DNA of 64,000 nt from contig JAYTOX010000055.1 in assembly GCA_043747595.1 (NCBI GenBank), positions 1,254 through 65,253 on the forward strand, read 5' to 3'. This document shows positions 18,490-51,830 of this stretch, piece after piece. Position 1 is the stretch's first letter; every line of letters starts with the position of its first letter. The notes below the pieces were generated by a model. It worked only from the letters and a program-made list of their open reading frames with translations. It had not been told where the DNA came from and did no database searches. Made by a program: the position numbers and the translations under genes. This DNA comes from Bacteroidota bacterium. Lineage in GTDB: Bacteria > Bacteroidota > Bacteroidia > AKYH767-A > 2013-40CM-41-45.

Positions 18490-18745
18490 TAATGAAGAAT
18501 TAATAACTAATAATTAAGAATTAAGAATTAAGAATTGAGAATGAATAATTAGTAATGAATAATTGGCAATGGAGAATGAGTAATGAATAGTTGGTTATGG
18601 ATCATTAGTAATTGATAATGAATAATTGGTAATGAATAATTGGTAATGAATAATTGATAATAAATAATTGGTAATGAATAATTGGTAATGAATATTTTGG
18701 AATTAATAATTAGGAATAAATAATTAGGAAATGATTATTTGAAAT
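18490..18745. repeat. Degenerate A/T-rich tandem array of 7-bp (aattaag) and about 14-bp (aatgaataattggt) units in the ABC-F 5' region
   Basis: About 17 imperfect copies can be read directly. The region falls between the start of the ABC-F gene (18452, minus strand) and the stop of the upstream minus-strand gene (18806). Confidence 0.8.
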
Positions 18746-36348: not shown

Positions 36349-37092
36349 GTGATGAAAAAAAATTGTTTGACATACAATAAACTAATTTTCAATATCTCCT
36401 TTTTGAGTATGTTGATACTTTGCCATTTTGCCATTGGACAAAAATCGTCCTACAAAATGATTACTGAAGGCAATGCGCAATACGATCAAAAGAAATATAG
36501 TGATGCAGAAGTAAATTACAGAAAATCGATCACGACCGGTAAAAATGTGAAAGAAGGAAATTACAATTTAGGAAATAGTTATTACAAGCAAGAAAAATTT
36601 GAAGAGGCGGCAAAGCAGTATGAAAGTACAGGCGCCTTAAAAGATTTAAACGATGAAGATAAATCTGCTGTCTATCATAACTTAGGGAATGCTTTGTTAA
36701 AAGAGAAAAAGTATCCTGAAAGTATTGATGCATTTAAAAATGCCCTGAAAGCAAATCCAAAAGACAATGATACGCGATACAATTTGGCGTATGCACAATC
36801 AATGCTACAGAAACAGCAGGATCAAAAAAATAAAGATAATAAAGATAAAAAGGACGATAAGAATAAAGAGCAACAGAAGAAAGAAGAGCAACAGAAAAAA
36901 GACGAGCAACAAAAGCAAGAAGAGAACAAGGAAGGTCAAAATAATGAGGAGAAAAATCAAGGAAAGAAAGATAAGATTTCAAAAGATGATGCTGAAAAGA
37001 TTTTACAAGCATTGAATAATGATGAAAAGAAAACGCAGAAGAAATTAAACTTGAAGCAGCCTACTAAAGTGAGTATTGAGAAGCAATGGTAA
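36349..37092 (+). CDS. batC: TPR-repeat protein BatC with a K/E/Q-rich low-complexity tail
   Basis: TPR-like repeats are in the N-terminal half. The low-complexity tail is encoded by purine-rich repetitive DNA at 36800-36990. Confidence 0.7.
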   Translation: MMKKNCLTYNKLIFNISFLSMLILCHFAIGQKSSYKMITEGNAQYDQKKYSDAEVNYRKSITTGKNVKEGNYNLGNSYYKQEKFEEAAKQYESTGALKDLNDEDKSAVYHNLGNALLKEKKYPESIDAFKNALKANPKDNDTRYNLAYAQSMLQKQQDQKNKDNKDKKDDKNKEQQKKEEQQKKDEQQKQEENKEGQNNEEKNQGKKDKISKDDAEKILQALNNDEKKTQKKLNLKQPTKVSIEKQW

Positions 37093-37105: not shown

Positions 37106-39001
37106 ATGAGAATGGACATTAAAAATTATAAGATAGCTAAAATGTGGGAAAAGGCGAGAGCAATATTTTTAATCTGCTTTATTTTTCTGATTCCACATTT
37201 AGCCATTGGCCAAAACGAAAAATTTACAGCGAGCACATCGGCATCAAGTGTTGGAACGGGAGAACAATTTCAGGTTACATTCTCATTGAATGCATCCGGC
37301 CGTTCGTTTAAGGCTCCTACTTTTTCAGATTTTACTGTACTGATGGGGCCAAGCCAAAGCAATCAAATGCAAATTATCAACGGCGCAGTTTCACAAACCT
37401 TGTCGTTTACATATGTACTTCAGGCAACCAAAGAAGGTAGTTTTAAAATCGGACCGGCCGAAATCATGGTTGGAGTAAATAAAATTGAAAGCAACATACT
37501 CACGATTGTTGTTACAAAAGGACAACCACAAACTCAAAATAAAACACAAGGAAATCAATCAGGGCAAGGGAGTGAAAGGATTATGGAAGGTGCCGGAAAA
37601 AATATTTTTGTAAGAGCAACTGTCGATAAGAATACTGTCTATCAAGGTGAAGGAATAGTAATTAGTTATAAGCTATATACCAAAGTGCCAGTGTTAGATT
37701 TTGTCATCCCTAAACTTCCATCTTACTCTGGATTTTGGAATCAGGAAATCGACAAGAAAGGGCAACAAGAACAAAATACAGTTCTGGACGGAGTAAACTA
37801 TAAGGTTGTTGATTTTAAGCAAATGGTTTTATTTCCTCAGCGCTCCGGTATACTCACCATAGATCCTATGGAATGTCAAGCAATAGCACGAGTAACAGTA
37901 AAGCGACAACAGCAAGGACAGAGCAACGATCCGTTTAGTCAATTTTTCAACGATCCTTTTTTTAACAACAATCCTTTTTTCAATAATAATGTTCAGGATA
38001 TAAAAATTGCTTTAAAAAGTGAGGCATTGAAAATTAATGTTAAAGAGCTTCCTCCGAATGCCCCGAAAGAATTTAATGGAGCTGTCGGAAAATTGAATTG
38101 CGAAATTAGTTTAGATAAGACAACAACTAAAGCAAATGAAGCTGTAAATATTAAAGTAAAGCTTAGTGGAAAAGGCAATATTAAATTGTTGGAGTCGCCT
38201 GGATTTACATTTCCACCCGATTTCGAAACGTATGATCCGAAAGAAAACACGACGCTCAATGCTAGTGCAGCAGGAGTTACCGGGACAAAAACATTTGAGT
38301 ATTTAATCATCCCACGTAATCCCGGTGATTTTAAAATAACTGTAAATCCATTTGTCTATTTCGATTTAGATAGAAAGCAATACACCAAAATTGATTTGAA
38401 CGACTTAAATTTGAAAGTAACGAAAGGAGATGGAAATTCTATTTCGGTTTCTTCCGATGTTCAACGTTCAGATGTAAAACAATTGGGAAAAGACATCCAC
38501 TTTATTAAAACAAACGATATAGAATTTGAGAACTCCTACAAGCCACTTTTCGGATCAATCAAATTTTATAGTCTTGCTCTTTTCCCGGCATTAGCTTTTT
38601 TCCTTTTATTATTTGTGCGGAAGAAGAATCAAAAAGATTTAGGAAACAGTGATGTGATTAAAAGTCAGCGTGCCAATAAAGCTGCAATGAAACGATTGAG
38701 TGCTGCAAAGAAATATCTTTCAACGAATGAGAAAGACAAGTTTTTAGATGAAATGTTTAGAGCGCTTTGGGGATTTATTGCCGACAAGTTGGTGATACCA
38801 GTTGCAGATTTATCGAAAGAAAAAGTAGTTGAGCTACTCAGAGAGAAAAACATTTCAAATGAATTGATAAACGAATTTACAGAAACCATCGACAGTTGTG
38901 AGTTTGCTCGTTTTGCAGGAGGTATTGCAGATAGCAACGATATTATTTATCAGAAAGGGATAACGATTATTTCAAAATTAGAAAGTGTAATTCGATCATA
39001 A
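37106..39001 (+). CDS. batD: BatD-like protein
   Basis: A large signal-peptide protein with a C-terminal transmembrane helix at the batD position. The start is placed at the ATG (MRMDIK...) downstream of the batC stop. The ORF-track start at 37076 overlaps batC. Confidence 0.7.
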   Translation: MRMDIKNYKIAKMWEKARAIFLICFIFLIPHLAIGQNEKFTASTSASSVGTGEQFQVTFSLNASGRSFKAPTFSDFTVLMGPSQSNQMQIINGAVSQTLSFTYVLQATKEGSFKIGPAEIMVGVNKIESNILTIVVTKGQPQTQNKTQGNQSGQGSERIMEGAGKNIFVRATVDKNTVYQGEGIVISYKLYTKVPVLDFVIPKLPSYSGFWNQEIDKKGQQEQNTVLDGVNYKVVDFKQMVLFPQRSGILTIDPMECQAIARVTVKRQQQGQSNDPFSQFFNDPFFNNNPFFNNNVQDIKIALKSEALKINVKELPPNAPKEFNGAVGKLNCEISLDKTTTKANEAVNIKVKLSGKGNIKLLESPGFTFPPDFETYDPKENTTLNASAAGVTGTKTFEYLIIPRNPGDFKITVNPFVYFDLDRKQYTKIDLNDLNLKVTKGDGNSISVSSDVQRSDVKQLGKDIHFIKTNDIEFENSYKPLFGSIKFYSLALFPALAFFLLLFVRKKNQKDLGNSDVIKSQRANKAAMKRLSAAKKYLSTNEKDKFLDEMFRALWGFIADKLVIPVADLSKEKVVELLREKNISNELINEFTETIDSCEFARFAGGIADSNDIIYQKGITIISKLESVIRS

Positions 39002-39019
39002 CACTTTTAATAATTAGCC

Positions 39020-39781
39020 ATGAAAAAAATACTTCCACTTATATTATTTTTGTTTTTAAGCTCATTCACTTTTGCTCAAAAACTAGATGCAAATATAAGT
39101 TATAAAAAAGCGAATCAATTTTATGCCAAACAAGATTATGAGAATGCCATAACTCTGTATAAAGCATTGATTGCCGATAAAAAAATATCGGCAGAAATAT
39201 ACTACAATCTTGGAAATTCATATTTCAAAACGGGAAAAGTTTCATTAGCAATAATTGCTTATGAAAGAGCCAAAAAGATTGCTCCCGACGACGAAGACAT
39301 TGATTTCAATTTAAAGATTGCATCATTAAAAACCATCGATCGAATAGATGTAGTACCTGATGTATTCTATAAAAGATGGTACCGAAGTGCGTCGTTGTTA
39401 TTTTCAGCAAATGGCTGGTCAACACTATTTATTATCTCCATTTGGTTATTTTTTATTTCAGCAGCAATCTATATTCTGGGTAAATCGATCGCCATTAAGA
39501 AACTTGGCTTTTTCGTTATGATTACATTTCTTTTCATTACTTCATTTGGTTATTTGATGGCTTCTTCCTCCTATTCCATTGCCCATGGAGAAGAACATGG
39601 AATCGTAATGGCACCATCGGTATATGTAAAAAGTTCGCCCGATGAAAAAGGCAACGATTTATTTATTCTTCACGAGGGAACAAAAGTAGAAGTAATGGAA
39701 ACCTTTGAAAATTGGAATAAGATTAAAATTGCCAATGGAAATATCGGTTGGTTGAAGAAGAATGAAATTGAAAAAATTTAA
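39020..39781 (+). CDS. batE: BatE-like TPR plus SH3b domain protein
   Basis: Signal peptide, TPR repeats, internal transmembrane helices and a C-terminal SH3_3-like segment. Confidence 0.7.
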   Translation: MKKILPLILFLFLSSFTFAQKLDANISYKKANQFYAKQDYENAITLYKALIADKKISAEIYYNLGNSYFKTGKVSLAIIAYERAKKIAPDDEDIDFNLKIASLKTIDRIDVVPDVFYKRWYRSASLLFSANGWSTLFIISIWLFFISAAIYILGKSIAIKKLGFFVMITFLFITSFGYLMASSSYSIAHGEEHGIVMAPSVYVKSSPDEKGNDLFILHEGTKVEVMETFENWNKIKIANGNIGWLKKNEIEKI

Positions 39782-40297
39782 TTGAAGCAGATGCAAAAAA
39801 TCGGTTTGCTTTCAGACACACACGGCTATGTTGATCCGCGCATTTATCATCACTTCAAAGACTGCGATCAAATTTGGCATGCAGGCGACTTTGGTGACGA
39901 AAGTGTTTCGGCAGAGTTAAGCAAGTTTAAATCATTCAAAGGAGTTTACGGTAATATAGATGGAACAAATATTCGTTTGTTGCATCCTCAAGATCTTTTT
40001 TTTGAATGTGAAGGGATGAAAATATTTATCACACACATTGGAGGTTATCCGGGCAATTATTACCCGGAAGCGGCGCAGAAAATAGCAACATTAAAACCCG
40101 ATCTTTTCATTTGCGGACATTCACATATTTTAAAAGTGATGCCCGATAAGAAGAATGATCTCTTGCATATGAATCCGGGAGCAGCCGGAAAGCACGGCTT
40201 TCACAAGATCAGAACCATACTTCGTTTTACTATTGAAGAAGGAAAAGTAAAAGATTTAGACGCAATCGAGTTAGGATTACGCGGAACAATTGAATAA
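39782..40297 (+). CDS. Metallophosphoesterase (YfcE/MJ0936 family)
   Basis: The motifs DTHG, GD and GHSH are characteristic of the calcineurin-like phosphoesterase superfamily. The product is 171 aa. Confidence 0.85.
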   Translation: MKQMQKIGLLSDTHGYVDPRIYHHFKDCDQIWHAGDFGDESVSAELSKFKSFKGVYGNIDGTNIRLLHPQDLFFECEGMKIFITHIGGYPGNYYPEAAQKIATLKPDLFICGHSHILKVMPDKKNDLLHMNPGAAGKHGFHKIRTILRFTIEEGKVKDLDAIELGLRGTIE

Positions 40298-40317
40298 AGA
40301 GATTTTTATTGAATTGT

Positions 40318-40833
40318 TTATCGCAAGCGATCGGCAGAACGAACTAGCTCCTCATCTCTTTTAATAAATCGGACAGCCAAGAAAAGGAAGACGATTCCGA
40401 TGATTGGAAAATAACTTCCATAGAGATAATGAACTTTTGCATTAGTAGTTGACGAAACTGCATCGGCAGAAAAGAAAACTAATCCAAGAAAAATACAATT
40501 TAACAAAAGCGCAAGGTTCGAAACTCTGATTTGGAGGTTTCTCTTTTTAAATAGAAATACACCGAGTAATGCCAGAACACCAACTGCACCGTTAATCAAG
40601 GCCAGAATAGCGCTGCTGAAAATAGTAAACCGTTTGTTCTGAACTTGTCCGTCGATGGCAATTGATGCATCAGTACCGATAGGGTCTGAAGCGGGTGCAG
40701 AAACCGCAGTTGAGGTTTGTTCTTGAGCCAATTCGTAAATTGGAAGGTACATGAGGGCTACACACAACAGTAGGGTAGCTAGTAAAAAAAGTGTTTGAAC
40801 TCTTTGTAGCATATTCTTGGATTGAGAGGGCAA
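40318..40833 (-). CDS. Membrane protein (DUF4293-like), upstream of rho as commonly seen in Bacteroidota
   Basis: Four transmembrane helices. The synteny with rho is recalled from Bacteroides genomes and has not been searched. Confidence 0.5.
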   Translation of the reverse strand: MPSQSKNMLQRVQTLFLLATLLLCVALMYLPIYELAQEQTSTAVSAPASDPIGTDASIAIDGQVQNKRFTIFSSAILALINGAVGVLALLGVFLFKKRNLQIRVSNLALLLNCIFLGLVFFSADAVSSTTNAKVHYLYGSYFPIIGIVFLFLAVRFIKRDEELVRSADRLR

Positions 40834-41130
40834 ATTAAAGAAATAACCTGAAAAGAAGTGATAAATAAACGAACGAAAAAGAGAAAAGTACTGTTGAAAA
40901 TATTTTGTGCTTTATTTGTATGTTATCGTATTATTCCATATTATTGTCGTGAAATTCAAAACCGAGCTAGGTTTTTTATTTATCCAACCCGGAATTTCCC
41001 CTTTGATTTATCGAGTAATGTCCTTTAAAAAGGCAAATCTTAAATTTTATTGCAATAGCTGCATCTATATTCCCCAACAAACAAACAACATCTATTTATT
41101 AAAAGTAGACCAACAACCACATAGTTTTTC

Positions 41131-42906
41131 ATGTTCGATATCGTTGAATTAAATTCTAAACTCGTTAGTGAGTTAAAAGAAATTGCCCGCTTAATGAATA
41201 TTTCAAAGTCAGATGACTTCAAAAAGCAAGAATTAATTTATAAAATTTTAGACCAACAGGCACTCCACCCCGATTCTACAAAATCGATTCGTGATGCAAT
41301 TGTTCCAAAAGCAACAATCAAAACTGCTAAAGTTGAAATGAAAGAAGAAGAAAGTATTCCTGAAAAACCTAGTAATGCTGATGCATCGTCCTCAAGACAA
41401 AGTAATGCTGATGCATCGTCATCAAGGCAAAGTATTGCTGATGCATCGTCAGCAAGGCAAAAGAGAAAAAGAGTTTCTCCACTAGAGGAGTCTGAATCAA
41501 AAAAAGAACCGATCGTTCTGGAGCCTAGTGTAAAAACACCTCCTATTCGGCAGACACCACAGGTTTCTGCACCAGTTGCAGAGAACAATGTAAGTTCAGA
41601 ACCGGCACAGCGTCCGGTACATGTGAGTAAACCATTTGTTAAAAATGAATTTGAAAGACCAGTTGCTCCGCAAAATGCGTACAACAACTTACCTTCAAAT
41701 CCTTCACCCAATTCTTCTAATTCTTCTAATCCTTCATTTCGCCAACCACAACCTCGAAGAGATAATGTGGCCGTGGAAGCTCCTATTGATCCTGACACAT
41801 TGATTGCTGTGGATGGTGTATTAGAAATTATGCCCGACGGATTTGGCTTTTTACGTTCAAGCGATTTTAATTATTTAACTTCTCCTGATGATGTATATGT
41901 AAATCAACAGCAGATAAAAGCTTTCGGATTAAAAACCGGCGATACTGTTCATGGGTATGTTCGTCCTCCACGTGAAGGCGAAAAATATTTTCCTTTTGTA
42001 AAAGTTGAATATATCAATGGACTTGATCCGGCAATTGTACGCGATAGAATTCATTTTGATTATCTCACACCGTTATTCCCTTATCAAAAATTAAATTTGA
42101 GTGGCGACAAATCGAATTATTCTACTCGAATAATGGATATGTTCACACCAATAGGAAAAGGACAGCGTGGATTGATAGTTGCCCAACCAAAAACGGGTAA
42201 GACTATGTTATTAAAAGATGTTGCGAATGCAATTGCAGCAAATCATCCGGAAGTTTACATGATTATTTTATTGATCGATGAGCGTCCGGAAGAGGTAACA
42301 GACATGGCTAGAAGTGTAAATGCAGAAGTTGTTGCTTCAACATTTGATGAGCCTGCAGAACGACATGTAAAAATTGCCAATATCGTTTTAGAAAAAGCTA
42401 AGCGATTAGTAGAGTGTGGTCATGATGTAGTTATTCTTTTAGATTCGATTACTCGTTTGGCACGTGCTTACAATACTGTAGCCCCTGCAAGTGGTAAAGT
42501 ATTATCGGGTGGTGTGGAAGCAAATGCTTTGCACAAACCAAAAAGATTTTTCGGTTCCGCTCGTAAGATCGAGAATGGAGGAAGTCTCACGATTATAGCA
42601 ACCGCGCTTATCGATACAGGATCAAGAATGGATGAGGTTATCTTTGAAGAATTCAAAGGAACAGGAAATATGGAACTTCAGTTAGATCGTAAGATTTCCA
42701 ACAAACGCCTCTTCCCAGCCATCGATTTAGTAGCATCTAGTACACGTAGAGAAGATATGTTGCTCGATAAAGAAATGATGCAGCGAATGTGGATCTTAAG
42801 AAACCACTTAGCTGACATGAATCCGTTAGAAGCGATGGAGTTTATACTCGACAGAATGAGAGGAACTAAATCGAACGAGGAGTTTTTAGTTTCGATGAAC
42901 GGTTAA
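41131..42906 (+). CDS. rho: Transcription termination factor Rho with a large N-terminal insertion domain
   Basis: The Rho_N helix bundle is at the N-terminus and the CSD-like RNA-binding region has the GFGFLR motif. Walker A is GKT. The RecA-like C-terminus is present. A disordered insert of about 170 aa includes three copies of [10 protein letters not shown]. Confidence 0.9.
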
Positions 42907-42932
42907 ATCTAACCAAACTATTGCAATCAAAT

Positions 42933-43592
42933 TTATTGCATCGAGCCGGAAAGGATTATTTCTTTTCCGGCTTTTTCATTCTTTGCAGTTTGTAACATTG
43001 CTGCAGCAACTTTGGAAACATGAATACCTCTGTAATTTTTTAAAGGCCCAATAAAAAGAAATGAAATGGCTTTAAATAAAATAATAGCAAACTTCTCTCC
43101 TGCCCTTTTCTCTTTTCTATTTCCTAAAAGTAATGACGGTCGAAAAAACGAAATTGCAGGAATCGATAATTTAGAAATGTCTTTTTCGACATCGCCTTTC
43201 ACTTGATTATAAAAAATAGAAGATGATGAGTCTGCTCCCATTGCAGTGATCATGAGAAAATGTTTCACCTGATTTTTTTCAGCCCACTTCGCAAGTGTAA
43301 GTGGGAATAAATAGTCAACTTTTTTAAATGCTTCTTTAGAACCGGCCACTTTAATAGTCGTTCCCAAACAACAAAATGCAACATCAACATCCGTGATGTT
43401 CGCTAATTCATTAGCGAGATTATTAAAATCAACAATTACTTCTTTAAGCTTAGAATTAGAATTCGTGGTTGCTTTTCTAACGACAGAATATATCATAGAA
43501 AAATTAGAATCATCCAATAATAATTTCAACAATTCAGAACCTACCAAACCTGACGAACCTACTATTAATGCTATTTTTCTTTCCCGGTTCAT
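42933..43592 (-). CDS. NAD(P)H-binding protein (atypical SDR/epimerase-like, YraR-type)
   Basis: An N-terminal Rossmann glycine motif GSSGLVG. The product is 219 aa. Confidence 0.75.
   Translation of the reverse strand: MNRERKIALIVGSSGLVGSELLKLLLDDSNFSMIYSVVRKATTNSNSKLKEVIVDFNNLANELANITDVDVAFCCLGTTIKVAGSKEAFKKVDYLFPLTLAKWAEKNQVKHFLMITAMGADSSSSIFYNQVKGDVEKDISKLSIPAISFFRPSLLLGNRKEKRAGEKFAIILFKAISFLFIGPLKNYRGIHVSKVAAAMLQTAKNEKAGKEIILSGSMQ
42945..42976 (+). terminator. Intrinsic terminator for rho, embedded in the 3' coding end of the convergent gene
   Basis: gccggaaa...tttccggc followed by TTTTT, beginning 39 nt after the rho stop. The same DNA encodes the last 12 codons of gene 42933-43592 on the minus strand. 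Confidence 0.5.
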
Positions 43593-43660
43593 GATTTATA
43601 CAATAAAAAGATTCGAAACAAAAATTAAAATAAGATTTGCTTTAGAACTAATCAAATTCA

Positions 43661-46144
43661 TTACGATGCATTCTTTTTAGAATCATCGTACTTTAGGTCG
43701 ATTGGTTTTTTAACTTTTTCTTTTGTAAGTGCCAGTTGAACAACTTCTATCATTTCAGAAACATAATGGAAACGCAACTGTTTTACATATACTTTTTTAA
43801 TTTCTTCAATGTCTTTGAAATTATCTTTCGAAAGAATAATGTCTTTGATCCCTGCTCTTTTCGCTGCTAGAATTTTTTCTTTGATTCCTCCTACCGGCAA
43901 TACTTTTCCACGGAGAGTTATCTCGCCAGTCATAGCTAAATGTGGCTTCACTTTCCTTTGAGTAAATGCTGAAGCGAGTGAAGTTAGCATGGTGATGCCG
44001 GCCGAAGGACCATCTTTGGGCGTTGCCCCTTCAGGAACGTGAATGTGAATATCCCATTGATCGAAAATTCGGTAATCGATTTTTAAATCTTCGCTATGTG
44101 CTTTCAAGTATGCCAACGCAATAATTGCCGATTCTTTCATTACCTCGCCAAGATTTCCGGTAATGGTCAATTTCCCCTTCCCTCTGCTTAGCGATGTTTC
44201 AACAAAAAGTATATCACCTCCTACCGATGTCCATGCTAAACCTGTAACGACACCTGCAACCTCATTCCCTTGATATTTATCGGCACTAAAAATTGAAGCG
44301 CCTAAAATTCTTGTGATATCTTTTTCTACAATATTAACATTGTACTTTTCTTCCATCGCCACCGATTTCGCAATACCTCTAATAAGTGAAGCTAATTTTT
44401 TTTCTAATCCACGTACTCCAGATTCTCGAGTATACTTATCAATTAAATATTCAATTAATGCCGATGAAATTTTCAAATGCGATTTTTTAAGTCCATGAGC
44501 CTCGAGCTGTTTAGGAATTAAATGCTTGATAGCAATTTCAACTTTCTCTTCAATTGTATAACCATTGATCTCAATAATCTCCATTCTATCGAGTAATGCA
44601 GGCTGAATTTTACTGAGCGAATTTGCAGTAGCTATAAAGAGCACATTCGAAAGATCGTAATCGATCTCTACATAATTATCATAGAACGTATTGTTTTGCT
44701 CCGGATCTAATACTTCGAGCAATGCTGATGAAGGGTCGCCGTGAAAATCATTACCGAGCTTATCAATTTCATCGAGAACAAAGATTGGGTTACTCGATTT
44801 AGCTTTTTTCAAATTCTGAATAATACGTCCCGGCATTGCACCGATATACGTTTTACGATGCCCTCTAATTTCTGCTTCGTCTCTTAATCCGCCCAACGAC
44901 ATTCGAACATATTTACGACCTAATGCTTTGGCGATTGATTTTCCAAGAGATGTTTTTCCAACTCCCGGAGGACCGTATAAACACATAATCGGAGATTTCA
45001 TATCACGCTTTAATTTCAATACGGCGAGATATTCAAGAATACGAGCTTTTACTTTTTCAAGACCATAATGATCTTTATCCAAAACTTTTTGCGCATGCTT
45101 AAGATCGAAATTGTCGTTCGTTAATTCATTCCACGGAAGATCAAGGAGCAATTCGAGATAATTTAAAATAACAGAATATTCAGCAGCAGCAGGATTCATT
45201 CGCGACAAACGGTCGGCTTCCTTTTGAAAAGTATCTGCTACTTCTTTACTCCACTTTTTAGTCTTTGCACGTTCTTTCAATTCAGCAACTTCTCTATCAG
45301 GAGTATTTCCACCAAGTTCTTCTTGAATAGTTCTGAGTTGCTGATTGAGAAAATATTCACGTTGTTGTTTGTCGATATCAACACGAACTTTACTTTGAAT
45401 CTGATTTTTCAGTTCCAACATTTGCAACTCTTTCGTTAAGTATTCGAGTACACGAGTTGAGCGTTCTTTATGATCGGCAATTTCCAGTAGCTCTTGTTTT
45501 TTTGCTACATCGAGATTCATATTTGAGCAAATAAAATTGATCAGAAAAGAATGACTTTCGATATTACGAATTGCAAAACCTGCATCGCTAGGAATATTAG
45601 GCGAGTGTTGAATAATTTGCAGAGCGAGATCTTTTAGAGAACCAACCAAGGCCATAAATTCTTTATCGGCTGTATTGGCAACTTGTTCAGGAAAAGGAAC
45701 AACCTTACAACGTATGTAAGGTTCAGTTTGTACGCACTCATCCAGTTTAAATCTTTTCTTCCCTTGTATTATGATGGTAGTATTACCATCCGGCATTCTC
45801 AACATTTTTATTACTTGCGCAACAGTACCAACTTGATTAAGATCAGCGAAAGTTGGATCTTCAACCGTTGTATCTTTTTGAGCAACTACGCCAATTATTT
45901 TATCGCCTTTGTAAGCGTCTTTAATTAAGTTGATCGATTTATCGCGCCCTACAGTGATAGGAATAACTACACCGGGAAATAAAACCGTATTTCGTAAAGG
46001 GAGAATTGATAGAACATCAGGGATACTTTGCTGATTCATTTGATCCTCGTCTTCTTGAGAAAGCAAGGGAATAAATTCAGTATCGTCGTCGATAATATTT
46101 GAAAGATCGAGCGCGTTTATTTTGGATGGATTTTCTGAAAACAT
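43661..46144 (-). CDS. lon: ATP-dependent protease La (Lon)
   Basis: A LON N-domain, AAA+ Walker A (GPPGVGKTS) and the S16 protease catalytic region ([10 protein letters not shown]). The product is 827 aa. Confidence 0.95.
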
Positions 46145-46388
46145 ATTGTGTTGGCGAAGGTAATGAACGACAATCTGACAGAAAAATTATTTCTCAATCA
46201 ATTTCGTTCGTGCATGGGGGAAGGTCGAAATTCGTGCCATAAGCAGATTTATGCCAAAATAACCATCCAAAAAAGGCAAATTAAACACACAAAATATACT
46301 CACCTGTTTATCATATCCTTAGAATCCAATATAGGTCACTTCCTTCTTGGCGAATCCCCTAGAATCACTTAGGTTTGCACCACTTATT

Positions 46389-47588
46389 ATGGAACAATCT
46401 GCCTTATCTCACCGCGTACTTTCATTAGCTGAAAGCCAAACAATTGGAATGTCAAAACGCAGTCGTGAATTATCAGCTCAGGGAGTTGATGTGATCAATT
46501 TGTCGTTAGGCGAACCCGATTTTGTAACGCCTGCTCATATTTGTGCCGCTGCCAAAAAAGCAATTGACGATGGATATACATTTTATCCTCCGATTGCCGG
46601 GTATGCAGAATTACGAAAAGCTATTTCCGATAAATTTAAACGAGAGAACAATCTTGAATATAAACCGGATCAGGTAGTAGTATCGACAGGTGCAAAACAG
46701 AGCATTGCTAATGTTGTGTTGAGTTTGGTAGATCCGGGCGATGAAGTAATAATTCCGATGCCTTTTTGGGTGAGTTATATTGAAATCGTAAAACTGGCAG
46801 AAGGAAAAACAATAAGCATAACAACCGACCTAAAGTCAGATTTTAAAATAACTCCAGAACAATTACAAGCAGCGATAACAGCAAAAACGAAGATGTTTAT
46901 TTTTTCTTCGCCATGTAATCCGACCGGTACTGTTTATACAAAAGAAGAACTACTAGGACTTGCAAAAGTGTTAGCAAAGCATCCAAGAATAATTATTTTA
47001 TCGGATGAAATTTATGAGCACATTAATTTTTTGGACGAGCATCAAAGCATTGCACAATTTGATTTCATTAAACCACAAGTTGTGATCGTTAATGGTGTTT
47101 CAAAAGGTTATGCAATGACAGGATGGCGAATAGGTTACATAGGAGCGCCAAAATATATTGCTGAAGCATGCGACAAGATGCAAGGACAATTTACATCTGC
47201 AGCAAGTTCAATAGCACAGAAAGCAGCCGAAGCTGCATTGAATGAAAGCAATAAACCTACACTCGACATGCAGGCTGCGTTTAGACGCAGAAGAGATCTA
47301 GTTTTAGATTTGATGAAAGATATTCCGGGTTGGAAAATTAATGAACCGAAAGGCGCATTTTATGTTTTCCCTGATATAAGTTTTTATTTTGGAAAATCAG
47401 ATGGTTCTACACTAGTAAAAAACAGTACAGACCTATGTATGTATTTACTACATGAAGGACATGTAAGTTTGGTTACCGGCGATGCATTCGGCGAACCAAA
47501 TTGTCTGCGTTTTTCATATGCAACTTCCGATGATAAACTTATCGAAGCCATTAAACGAATTAAGAATACACTTAGTAAATTAAAATAA
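46389..47588 (+). CDS. Pyridoxal-phosphate-dependent aminotransferase class I (aspartate aminotransferase-like)
   Basis: The PLP lysine region SKGYAMTGWRIGY is present. The start is taken at the internal ATG (MEQSALS...), since the ORF-track start at 46347 adds an unlikely leader. Confidence 0.85.
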   Translation: MEQSALSHRVLSLAESQTIGMSKRSRELSAQGVDVINLSLGEPDFVTPAHICAAAKKAIDDGYTFYPPIAGYAELRKAISDKFKRENNLEYKPDQVVVSTGAKQSIANVVLSLVDPGDEVIIPMPFWVSYIEIVKLAEGKTISITTDLKSDFKITPEQLQAAITAKTKMFIFSSPCNPTGTVYTKEELLGLAKVLAKHPRIIILSDEIYEHINFLDEHQSIAQFDFIKPQVVIVNGVSKGYAMTGWRIGYIGAPKYIAEACDKMQGQFTSAASSIAQKAAEAALNESNKPTLDMQAAFRRRRDLVLDLMKDIPGWKINEPKGAFYVFPDISFYFGKSDGSTLVKNSTDLCMYLLHEGHVSLVTGDAFGEPNCLRFSYATSDDKLIEAIKRIKNTLSKLK

Positions 47589-51637: not shown

Positions 51638-51830
51638 ATTGAGGCGACGGATTATGAATCTGTCTGAGCGTGCGACGGATTATAAATCTGTCGGAGAGTG
51701 CAAAGGATTACAAATCCGTCGGAGCATCATTCGGAGCGTGTGTAGCTTTAAATTGAAGCGACGGATTATAAATCTGTCGGAGCATCATTCGGAGCGTTTG
51801 TCGAAGCTGCTCTAAATTGAGCGCAAACAA
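51633..51830. repeat. REP-like cluster of four hairpin repeats (consensus gcgacggattaTAAatctgtcggagc) with tails ...ttaaattga
   Basis: Copies are at about 51645, 51673, 51700 and 51768. Each is an imperfect palindrome (gacggatt / aatctgtc). The third is a perfect ggattacaaatcc. The array lies between convergent genes and overlaps the last 15 codons of the TrmH gene. Confidence 0.75.

Follow-up and report, generated by a model that had tools for sequence, protein, structure and literature searches.

The rho locus and its product

The 64,000-nucleotide stretch analysed here (the window) contains the gene for the transcription termination factor Rho, and this report concerns that gene, a disordered insert in its product, a tandem repeat within the insert and the leader upstream of the start codon. 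The order of genes is BatD, a TPR protein, a YfcE-like phosphoesterase, DUF4293 (divergent from rho), rho, a convergent epimerase and Lon, and the nearest relatives share it. The rho coding sequence is the open reading frame (ORF) at 41131-42906 on the forward strand and specifies 591 amino acids (aa). Over its full length it matches two NCBIfam equivalog models for rho, NF006886 (672.3 bits, cut-off 315) and TIGR00767 (633 bits, cut-off 509.45). The ORF encodes a genuine transcription termination factor Rho (TIGR00767 / PRK09376). The gene is an ordinary housekeeping rho of an uncultured Bacteroidota bacterium and its product is a 'type 2' Rho. Its predicted activity would be hexameric, ATP-dependent termination.

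Alignment to solved structures pairs window residues 3-45 with residues 5-47 of Escherichia coli Rho, and window residues 227-589 with residues 51/54-416/419 (498 bits). The second segment takes in DGFGFLR, the Walker A motif PKTGKT, KRLFPAID and the Q- and R-loop regions. Residues 46-226 (approximately 180 aa) form an insert, because E. coli Rho has no counterpart there. The coordinates of these and other features are collected in Table 1.

The disordered insert

The insert is predicted to be intrinsically disordered. In an AlphaFold2 model built on a 65-sequence alignment, residues 59-213 have a predicted local distance difference test (pLDDT) of 35-44 and zero secondary structure, whereas pLDDT is 80-83 in the flanking helix bundle, 75-88 in the OB domain and 73-82 in much of the ATPase. 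An initial 19-sequence model was of low quality as a whole (mean pLDDT 46.8) and showed the same contrast between insert and flanks. Order-promoting residues make up 18.6% of the insert versus 35.7% of the core, and the Uversky hydropathy of the insert (0.396) is below the boundary of 0.417. A first reading of this DNA, made from its letters alone (the sequence-only reading), had described a Rho of the Bacteroidota type whose known insertion site carries a disordered segment. The Pfam and NCBIfam matches, the E. coli alignment and the AlphaFold2 model all agree with that description, although the insert is slightly longer than the 170 aa given there.

The composition described in the same reading, rich in S, N, P, Q and A, holds for S (15.8%), P (13.1%) and A (9.8%) but not for N (7.1%) and Q (4.9%), which are unremarkable. 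Q and N together reach a maximum of 17 per 80 aa and 11 per 40 aa. Prion-like Rho of the Clostridium botulinum type is recognised by approximately 30 or more Q+N per 80 aa. The insert is therefore not a Q/N prion-like domain, and the prion-like composition that had been raised for it is weak.

The insert is constrained. Codon comparison with the sister species (described below) counts 24 non-synonymous and 58 synonymous changes in the insert; the corresponding counts for the core are 3 and 127. From these counts the insert is judged to be under purifying selection that is looser than in the core, with a non-synonymous share far below the neutral expectation. Three conserved elements are listed in Table 1, and a further conserved island is E-R-P at residues 175-177. 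Exact RxKRKRV and EPSVK motifs are confined to the clade of the window among the Bacteroidota Rho inserts compared. A relaxed form of the basic motif, [KR][KRP][KRPS]x?R[IVM], is present in 45 inserts of a survey of 119 non-redundant Bacteroidota rho loci from genomes and metagenomes, and in 5 of the 119 after shuffling. The gut Bacteroidales version of this motif is QPRKRSRISVKKEG, at residue 67. All 119 surveyed proteins have an insert, ranging in size from 81 to 335 aa.

An antisense ORF of 186 aa (41238-41798, reverse strand) was considered and rejected as a gene. It spans just the non-conserved insert and is a typical by-product of low-complexity coding sequence.

The 3 x 30-bp repeat and its single-copy ancestor

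Within the insert, Tandem Repeats Finder (TRF) calls a repeat at 41371-41461 with a period of 30, 3.0 copies and 93% matches. Between copies 1 and 2 there are two nucleotide differences, the number given in the sequence-only reading, and both are synonymous. Copies 2 and 3 also differ at two nucleotides, both of them non-synonymous. The array had been called a perfect repeat of three 10-aa units; it is real and lies where it was placed, but its third unit departs from the others at 2 of 10 residues. Each unit is Ser-rich and, having one D and one R, carries no net charge. The array stands directly upstream of RxKRKRV and its unit includes the R[PQ] that opens this conserved basic motif.

The sister species reveals the state before the repeat. 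It is represented by three 568-aa protein variants (P0001 and two others) from at least 10 contigs (loci L001-L006). Its Rho core is 99.2% identical to that of the window, and a single unit, GNDADSSSSRP, precedes KRKRV. One homologous unit, of the form xxDxSSxR[PL], is found in every aligned relative (18 relatives in addition to the sister species). By this comparison the lineage of the window has gained two units, a lineage-specific expansion from one to three, which bears out the earlier suggestion of a recent expansion or contraction. The window and L001 differ at 45% of four-fold degenerate sites. Since adjacent copies differ at 2 of 30 nucleotides, the expansion post-dates the split of the species.

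A second slippage footprint lies further along the insert. An exact 2 x 9-nt duplication of AATTCTTCT (coding SSN-SSN) lies at 41710-41727 in the N/S/P-rich tail. The duplication is absent from the sister species (L001), than which the window is 3 aa longer at this period-9 tract.

Insert repeats recur in the phylum. Counting in-frame tandem repeats of period 9 or more with at least 2 copies (TRF), 34 of the 119 inserts (approximately 29%) have one, and that of the window ranks fourth by TRF score. Two metagenome-assembled genomes (MAGs) labelled Lishizhenia tianjinensis (L084 and L085) have Rho with identical cores and a 10-aa indel in an array of ENRNx pentapeptides at residues approximately 170-221, so even very close relatives differ in how many repeats the insert has. 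Tandem repeats in the intrinsically disordered region (IDR) of Rho were already described by Schumbera et al. 2023 (PMC10284900), and variable, compositionally biased insertions are the norm for Rho of the Fibrobacterota-Chlorobiota-Bacteroidota (FCB) group (PMC11347177). The repeat in the window is one instance of a recurrent and already known change in insert length.

The two extra units would have been added in frame by slippage or unequal recombination. What was duplicated is the Ser-rich segment that abuts RxKRKRV, including the first Arg of the motif. The triplication would lengthen the spacer between the K/E-rich head of the insert and the RNA-binding basic motif and add two D/R pairs, with a likely small effect. 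By analogy with Bacteroides thetaiotaomicron Rho, a longer spacer could shift the threshold of RNA-dependent condensation.

Whether the copy number tunes anything is another matter. The exact protein is known from one contig, and a tunable copy number in this organism is at most a possibility. The array itself weighs against one, with three imperfect units in place of the long perfect array of a contingency locus; units that are 93% identical and not perfect are poor slippage substrates. Protein collection searches gave no allele with two or four units. The search with the full protein found no relative closer than P0001, the search with the insert found one single-copy fragment and nothing else, a contig look-up with the exact protein gave no match, and a metagenome scan for other repeat alleles returned distant relatives alone among the matches listed.

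The repeat may instead be a selectively neutral product of slippage in a weakly constrained IDR, its copy number effectively fixed and tuning nothing. To this we lean slightly less than to its opposite. The segment flanking the repeat is the least conserved part of the insert among relatives, the units carry no net charge, the copies have already diverged (2 of 30 nucleotides each) and one allele is known. The lack of a common sequence among the repeats in 29% of Bacteroidota inserts is also what drift of low-complexity sequence predicts. Neutrality is harder to reconcile with the purifying selection on the insert as a whole (24 non-synonymous versus 58 synonymous codon changes), with a repeat that abuts and partly duplicates an invariant basic motif, and with the control of B. 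thetaiotaomicron Rho condensation by short motifs and their spacing (PMC13269538).

An assembly artefact in this metagenome-derived contig is very improbable, even though the exact protein is on one contig only. The array of 90 bp is shorter than a typical read, and its units differ at defined positions, which argues against collapsed or duplicated reads. The reading frame is kept and the flanks align cleanly to the sister species.

Each 30-bp unit also contains an 8-bp palindrome, GATGCATC (41380-41450, 30 bp apart), and the single unit of the sister species has GATTCATC at this place. The palindrome is probably due to chance, which is roughly 9% for a unit of such length.

Putative promoter and extent of the rho leader

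Upstream of rho, a TAnnnTTG box is invariant in an alignment of the window and ten relatives (11 clade members). It lies -184 to -202 from the ATG (-192 in the window). Given this conserved box, the transcription start site (TSS) would lie near 40950-40955 and the 5' untranslated region (5'UTR) would be approximately 180 nt, coinciding with a 192-nt bubble in which C exceeds G. The promoter was identified by conservation rather than by pattern scan. A sigma-70 promoter scan was at chance level, and the strict pattern TTTG-N17-23-TAnnTTTG has no match near rho and 4 in the window versus 5.8 expected. At 115 loci the promoter-like boxes that precede rho gather between -250 and -50, peaking at -200 to -100, and none lies between -50 and 0.

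Between the box and the start codon, 10 of 192 nt distinguish the window from L001 (94.8% identity), compared with 55% identity at four-fold sites (Fisher p = 1e-18). The region upstream of the promoter box is 76% identical. Within its first 80 nt the leader matches the sister species at every position. This stretch is 72-81% identical to that of relatives with approximately 80% protein identity, whose four-fold sites are 40-56% identical.

Identity to L001 is mosaic across the locus. Over 37141-46860, blocks of 93-98% identity (37141-37680, 39781-40140, 40921-41340 and 46021-46260) alternate with blocks of 62-75%, and the epimerase-like gene at 42933-43592 is notably divergent. The pattern suggests recombination or very uneven constraint. 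A constraint at the RNA level on the first 44 rho codons was considered and rejected: the signal against the sister species (p = 5e-5) disappears when nine more distant relatives are compared. These codons, with their low synonymous change, are probably part of the mosaic high-identity block.

A leader peptide was also rejected. Its candidate, a 44-codon upstream ORF that starts with the ATG at 41018 and overlaps the start of rho, has ACG at this position in the sister species.

An excess of C over G upstream of rho across the phylum

The sequence-only reading had called the leader strikingly C-rich and G-poor. In 41040-41130, G is indeed scarce (6 of 91 nt, 6.6%, versus a window mean of 17.7%), which places the segment within the lowest 1.3% of 90-nt windows, and the quoted strings are present. 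C, however, is only mildly raised (20 of 91 nt, 22%, window mean 17.8%). The number of C minus the number of G (C-G) is +14 over 90 nt, tied first among 49 genes of the window, and +20 over 200 nt. Values of +10 to +14 are also reached by four other noncoding upstream regions of the window, and therefore the leader is no outlier on the window alone.

The region upstream of an aminotransferase gene (46298-46388; C 25 and G 11 in 90 nt) and that upstream of the divergent DUF4293 gene (40813-40902, reverse strand; C 19 and G 7 on the sense strand) equal the rho leader in C>G skew. C>G leaders are not unique to rho in this genome.

Across Bacteroidota, a C>G skew specific to rho is evident. In the 90 nt upstream, C-G is +7.9 at rho (115 loci) versus +1.15 at 279 neighbouring control genes, which are crude ORF calls with noncoding upstream regions (Mann-Whitney p = 1e-19), and within loci the skew of rho exceeds that of its neighbours in 93 of 113 cases (paired Wilcoxon p = 2e-15); both p-values overstate the certainty because the ORF calls are crude and the loci phylogenetically non-independent. 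At rho the skew covers the 125 nt before the ATG (+0.04 to +0.118 per nt), but in the controls the final 25 nt alone are skewed (+0.057 per nt). The positive control, the leader of E. coli rho, has a C-G of +11 in 90 nt and +19 in 255 nt.

In E. coli, Salmonella, Caulobacter crescentus and B. subtilis, rho is known to be attenuated autogenously in its leader (PMC11599450). By the same mechanism, the conserved Bacteroidota-type promoter approximately 190 nt upstream would drive rho, and the long, conserved, G-poor and C>G-skewed leader would serve as a region for Rho loading and attenuation. Excess Rho would then terminate its own transcript, as in those four bacteria. Judged from sequence features, autoregulation of rho through the leader in the window is plausible. 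The idea of a leader resembling a Rho utilization (rut) site and fitting autoregulation, already put forward in the sequence-only reading, gains from the 192-nt bubble and from a skew that is both E. coli-like and phylum-wide.

Several observations weigh against attenuation. The leader contains no 6x(YC N9-13) array, its longest chain being 4, and its C content is only 22%; low-GC FCB genomes are generally poor in such arrays (PMC11347177). No report of rho autoregulation in Bacteroidota was found in the literature searched. The skew is strongest beside the start codon, where the controls are also G-depleted. The C-tract had been flagged in the sequence-only reading, and its tracts are unpaired in the minimum free energy (MFE) fold, but the strongest conservation is in the 5' 80 nt instead, which hints at a specific element other than a compositional rut site. 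Given the mosaic identity to L001, part of the similarity across the leader and the opening 200 nt of rho may also stem from a mosaic or recombination block.

Bacteroidota initiate translation without a Shine-Dalgarno sequence. The G-poor and C/A-rich leader may accordingly be a feature of translation initiation and not a Rho loading site, an unstructured, G-depleted 5'UTR favouring initiation on an abundant, essential mRNA. We consider this rather unlikely on the whole. In its favour are a skew that peaks in the last 50 nt before the ATG, the C>G excess that the controls too have in their last 25 nt, C-tracts predicted to be unpaired (in an MFE fold of the leader that is not unusually stable, z = -0.9) and the lack of a 6xYC periodicity. 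It would not explain why the skew at rho reaches -125, where the controls have none, or why a leader of approximately 180 nt is far longer than translation needs. The magnitude of the skew, moreover, equals that of the proven attenuator leader of E. coli. Translation and Rho loading are not mutually exclusive.

A conserved element at the 5' end of the leader

The most conserved part of the leader begins directly after the putative TSS. A hairpin, a U-run and a block (40958-41001) follow one another at a fixed offset of -154 to -183 from the ATG and are clade-specific. The hairpin has one compensatory change across the clade, from A-U to U-A. Elsewhere the block ATTTATCCAACCCGGAATTTCCCC has 2 chance matches in 2 Mb. 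Because ATCC(G)/(C)GGAT segments recur, two alternative pairings are possible. RNAalifold of the 5' leader gives -3.5 kcal/mol with an unfavourable covariation term and prefers a different pairing, from few and closely related sequences. An Rfam scan of 40700-43100 (E <= 1) yielded nothing credible in the leader.

These features raise the possibility that rho is controlled mainly by the 5'-proximal hairpin with its U-run and by the ATCC...GGAATTTCCCC block, the C>G tract being secondary. The element would be an intrinsic attenuator or a pause site, or would be bound by a protein or small RNA. Its conservation (100% in the sister species and 72-81% in the more distant group), the constant placement of hairpin and U-run in 8 of 11 clade members (one pair showing a compensatory change), and a block found upstream of rho only are in keeping with such a role. 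So is the wider count of terminator-like hairpins: 35 of 117 rho upstream regions have one, versus 17 for the antisense strand and 9 after shuffling. We nevertheless find this account unlikely. The hairpin is weak (6 bp, 2 of them G-C), the RNAalifold result has poor energy and covariation and favours another pairing, the whole leader is no more stable than its shuffles and Rfam offers no match. The element is restricted to one family-level clade, while the C>G skew is phylum-wide, and the 5' conservation may partly reflect the promoter and the initially transcribed region.

An integrated reading

Taken jointly, we favour with moderate confidence a housekeeping 'type 2' rho whose insert was recently triplicated in one segment and whose conserved C>G leader serves Rho attenuation. 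One point against it concerns the insert: the presumed homology of its motifs to those of B. thetaiotaomicron Rho rests on resemblance to gut Bacteroidales sequences, not on published logos. A bolder combination would make leader autoregulation ancestral and phylum-wide, the 5' element (hairpin, U-run, ATCC/GGAT) a new RNA element of the clade, and repeat gain and loss beside the RNA-binding basic motif the main means of retuning the threshold of Rho condensation. As a whole this combination is improbable.

Rho is essential, and the behaviour of its disordered insert affects gut fitness in Bacteroides. The locus offers a natural before/after pair, with cores 99% identical that differ mainly by two extra 10-aa units beside a basic motif, and the pair could be used to test spacer length against RNA-dependent condensation. 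Two more general points emerge. Roughly 29% of Bacteroidota Rho inserts hold in-frame tandem repeats, and Bacteroidota rho leaders of approximately 100-200 nt have a C>G skew that neighbouring genes lack. The phylum-wide skew makes autoregulation of Bacteroidota Rho a concrete and testable prediction. The repeat and the leader fit known patterns and leave the understanding of Rho unchanged.

Table 1. Features of the rho locus, in window coordinates
Feature	Position	Strand	Basis or remark
-33-like TTTG of the putative rho promoter	40915-40918	+	TTG/TTTG approximately 20 nt upstream of the box in 11/11 clade members; putative role
-7-like promoter box TATTATTG	40939-40946	+	5/6 specified positions of the Bacteroidota TAnnTTTG consensus
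Putative 5'UTR of approximately 180 nt, continuous 192-nt C>G bubble, candidate rut-like attenuator	40949-41140	+	Skew scan
5'-proximal hairpin AAAACC-GAGCTA-GGTTTT, then U-run	40958-40977	+	Same offset in 8/11 clade members
Conserved leader block ATTTATCCAACCCGGAATTTCCCC	40978-41001	+	Upstream of rho only, -154 to -172, in this clade
C/A-rich, G-poor tracts TTCCCCAACAAACAAACAACATC ... CCAACAACCACATAG	41070-41124	+	Strings at 41070-41092 and 41110-41124; unpaired in MFE fold
Rho_N helix bundle, residues 6-44	41146-41262	+	Pfam PF07498; AlphaFold2 helices
N-terminal insertion, approximately residues 46-226	41266-41808	+	Predicted disordered; absent from E. coli Rho
In-frame 3 x 30-bp tandem repeat, residues 81-110	41371-41460	+	TRF score 154; single copy in relatives
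Basic motif RQKRKRVSP, residues 109-117	41455-41481	+	R112 and R114 invariant in 65 relatives
Conserved island, residues 127-143	41509-41559	+	L130-P138 (LEPSVK-x-PP) invariant among 19 relatives
N/S/P-rich micro-repeat, period 9	41692-41736	+	TRF
Basic motif FRQPQPRRD closing the insert, residues 203-211	41737-41763	+	F203 and Q205 invariant in 19 relatives; R209 near-invariant in 65
RNA-binding (CSD/OB) domain Rho_RNA_bind, residues 228-300	41812-42030	+	Pfam PF07497, 108.9 bits; DGFGFLR aligned
RecA-type ATPase (ATP-synt_ab, residues 333-537)	42127-42741	+	Pfam; Walker A PKTGKT at 42187-42204
rho intrinsic terminator, 13-bp stem then T-run	42943-42980	+	Follows the gene; also given as 42943-42973

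Other features of the window and of the sequence collections

The rho terminator sits within the last codons of the convergent epimerase-like gene (42933-43592, reverse strand). Four further tandem repeats occur in the window: a 57-nt unit in 4.8 copies with 95% identity (518-791), an AT-rich 14-nt unit in 13 copies (18490-18742), an 18-nt unit in 3.6 copies inside the ORF called at 36351-37092 (36866-36928), and a 28-nt unit, GCGACGGATTATAAATCTGTCGGAGCGT, in 2.9 copies between convergent genes (51644-51725).

Some entries met in the searches are anomalous. The 90% cluster that contains the Rho of the window (P0123) otherwise comprises two unrelated proteins of 48 aa (P0124 and P0125) and has an unrelated 48-aa representative; this database clustering artefact explains why the query itself was missing from the homology search results. 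Bacteroidota-type Rho with long inserts was also found in L057 (a MAG labelled Synechococcus sp. UW140) and L065 (a MAG labelled Bifidobacteriaceae). To our knowledge cyanobacteria lack Rho. Both contigs are probably mis-binned. P0020, otherwise a close relative, diverges sharply from all others over its C-terminal ~90 residues, which suggests a chimeric assembly.

Comparison with known systems

The Rho of B. thetaiotaomicron (BtRho) and its IDR are reportedly the subject of work by Krypotou et al. in 2023. As in BtRho, the insertion in the window lies at the junction of the helix bundle and the CSD-like domain and is predicted to be disordered. The order of parts is also alike: a K/E-rich head, basic short motifs, an acidic patch, a conserved island, an N-rich tail and a closing basic motif. 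RQKRKRVSP of the window resembles QPRKRSRIS of gut Bacteroidales Rho. The BtRho insert, with its KE-rich, BCD and PLD subdomains and five conserved charged motifs, has a conserved middle domain and an N/Q-rich tail with a basic motif, and its positively charged short motifs drive RNA-dependent condensation and are also required for ppGpp binding (PMC13269538, EMBO J 2026). FRQPQPRRD would be the analogue of the BtRho 'PLD motif', and the Rho of the window may, like BtRho, separate into condensates and bind ppGpp.

The two inserts differ in scale and in sequence. That of the window is approximately 180 aa and that of BtRho approximately 274-309 aa, and the K/E-rich part is approximately 35 aa compared with 176 aa. 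The N-rich tail of the window (approximately 22 aa) is, unlike that of BtRho, below prion-like Q/N richness, with 17 Q+N per 80 aa. The LEPSVKTPP island is clade-specific and unrelated in sequence to the conserved domain of Bacteroides. BtRho, unlike the Rho of the window, is not described with a tandem repeat, and the words 'repeat' and 'tandem' are absent from PMC13269538.

Repeats in Rho are described from the Lachnospiraceae, where the IDR has 14 x YQSRGD in Clostridium symbiosum and 5 x RNYQD in Blautia obeum (Schumbera et al. 2023, PMC10284900). The likeness lies in independent in-frame tandem duplications of short units in the Rho insertion, read as a route of IDR diversification. The repeat described here belongs to another phylum, has a longer unit (10 aa) in fewer copies (3), and is Ser/Ala/Asp-rich and not Y/Q/R-rich. 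Its ancestral single-copy state is directly visible in the relatives of the window.

With the autoregulated rho leaders, the leader in the window shares a long untranslated region and, with that of E. coli, the magnitude of the C>G skew. E. coli has the rhoL leader peptide, whereas none is conserved in the window. The leader further differs from the known examples in its low-GC genome, Bacteroidota-type promoter, lack of a 6xYC array and clade-specific 5' hairpin with U-run.

The atypical 'type 2' Rho is said to have been treated by D'Heygere et al. in 2013. Approximately 69% of FCB-group Rho have an insertion; these proteins are compositionally biased and predicted to be disordered and have an arginine-rich motif (Moreira et al. 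2024, PMC11347177). The Rho of the window has the same succession of N-terminal domain, insertion, RNA-binding domain and ATPase. It shows no categorical difference from this type and adds a sequence variant to it.

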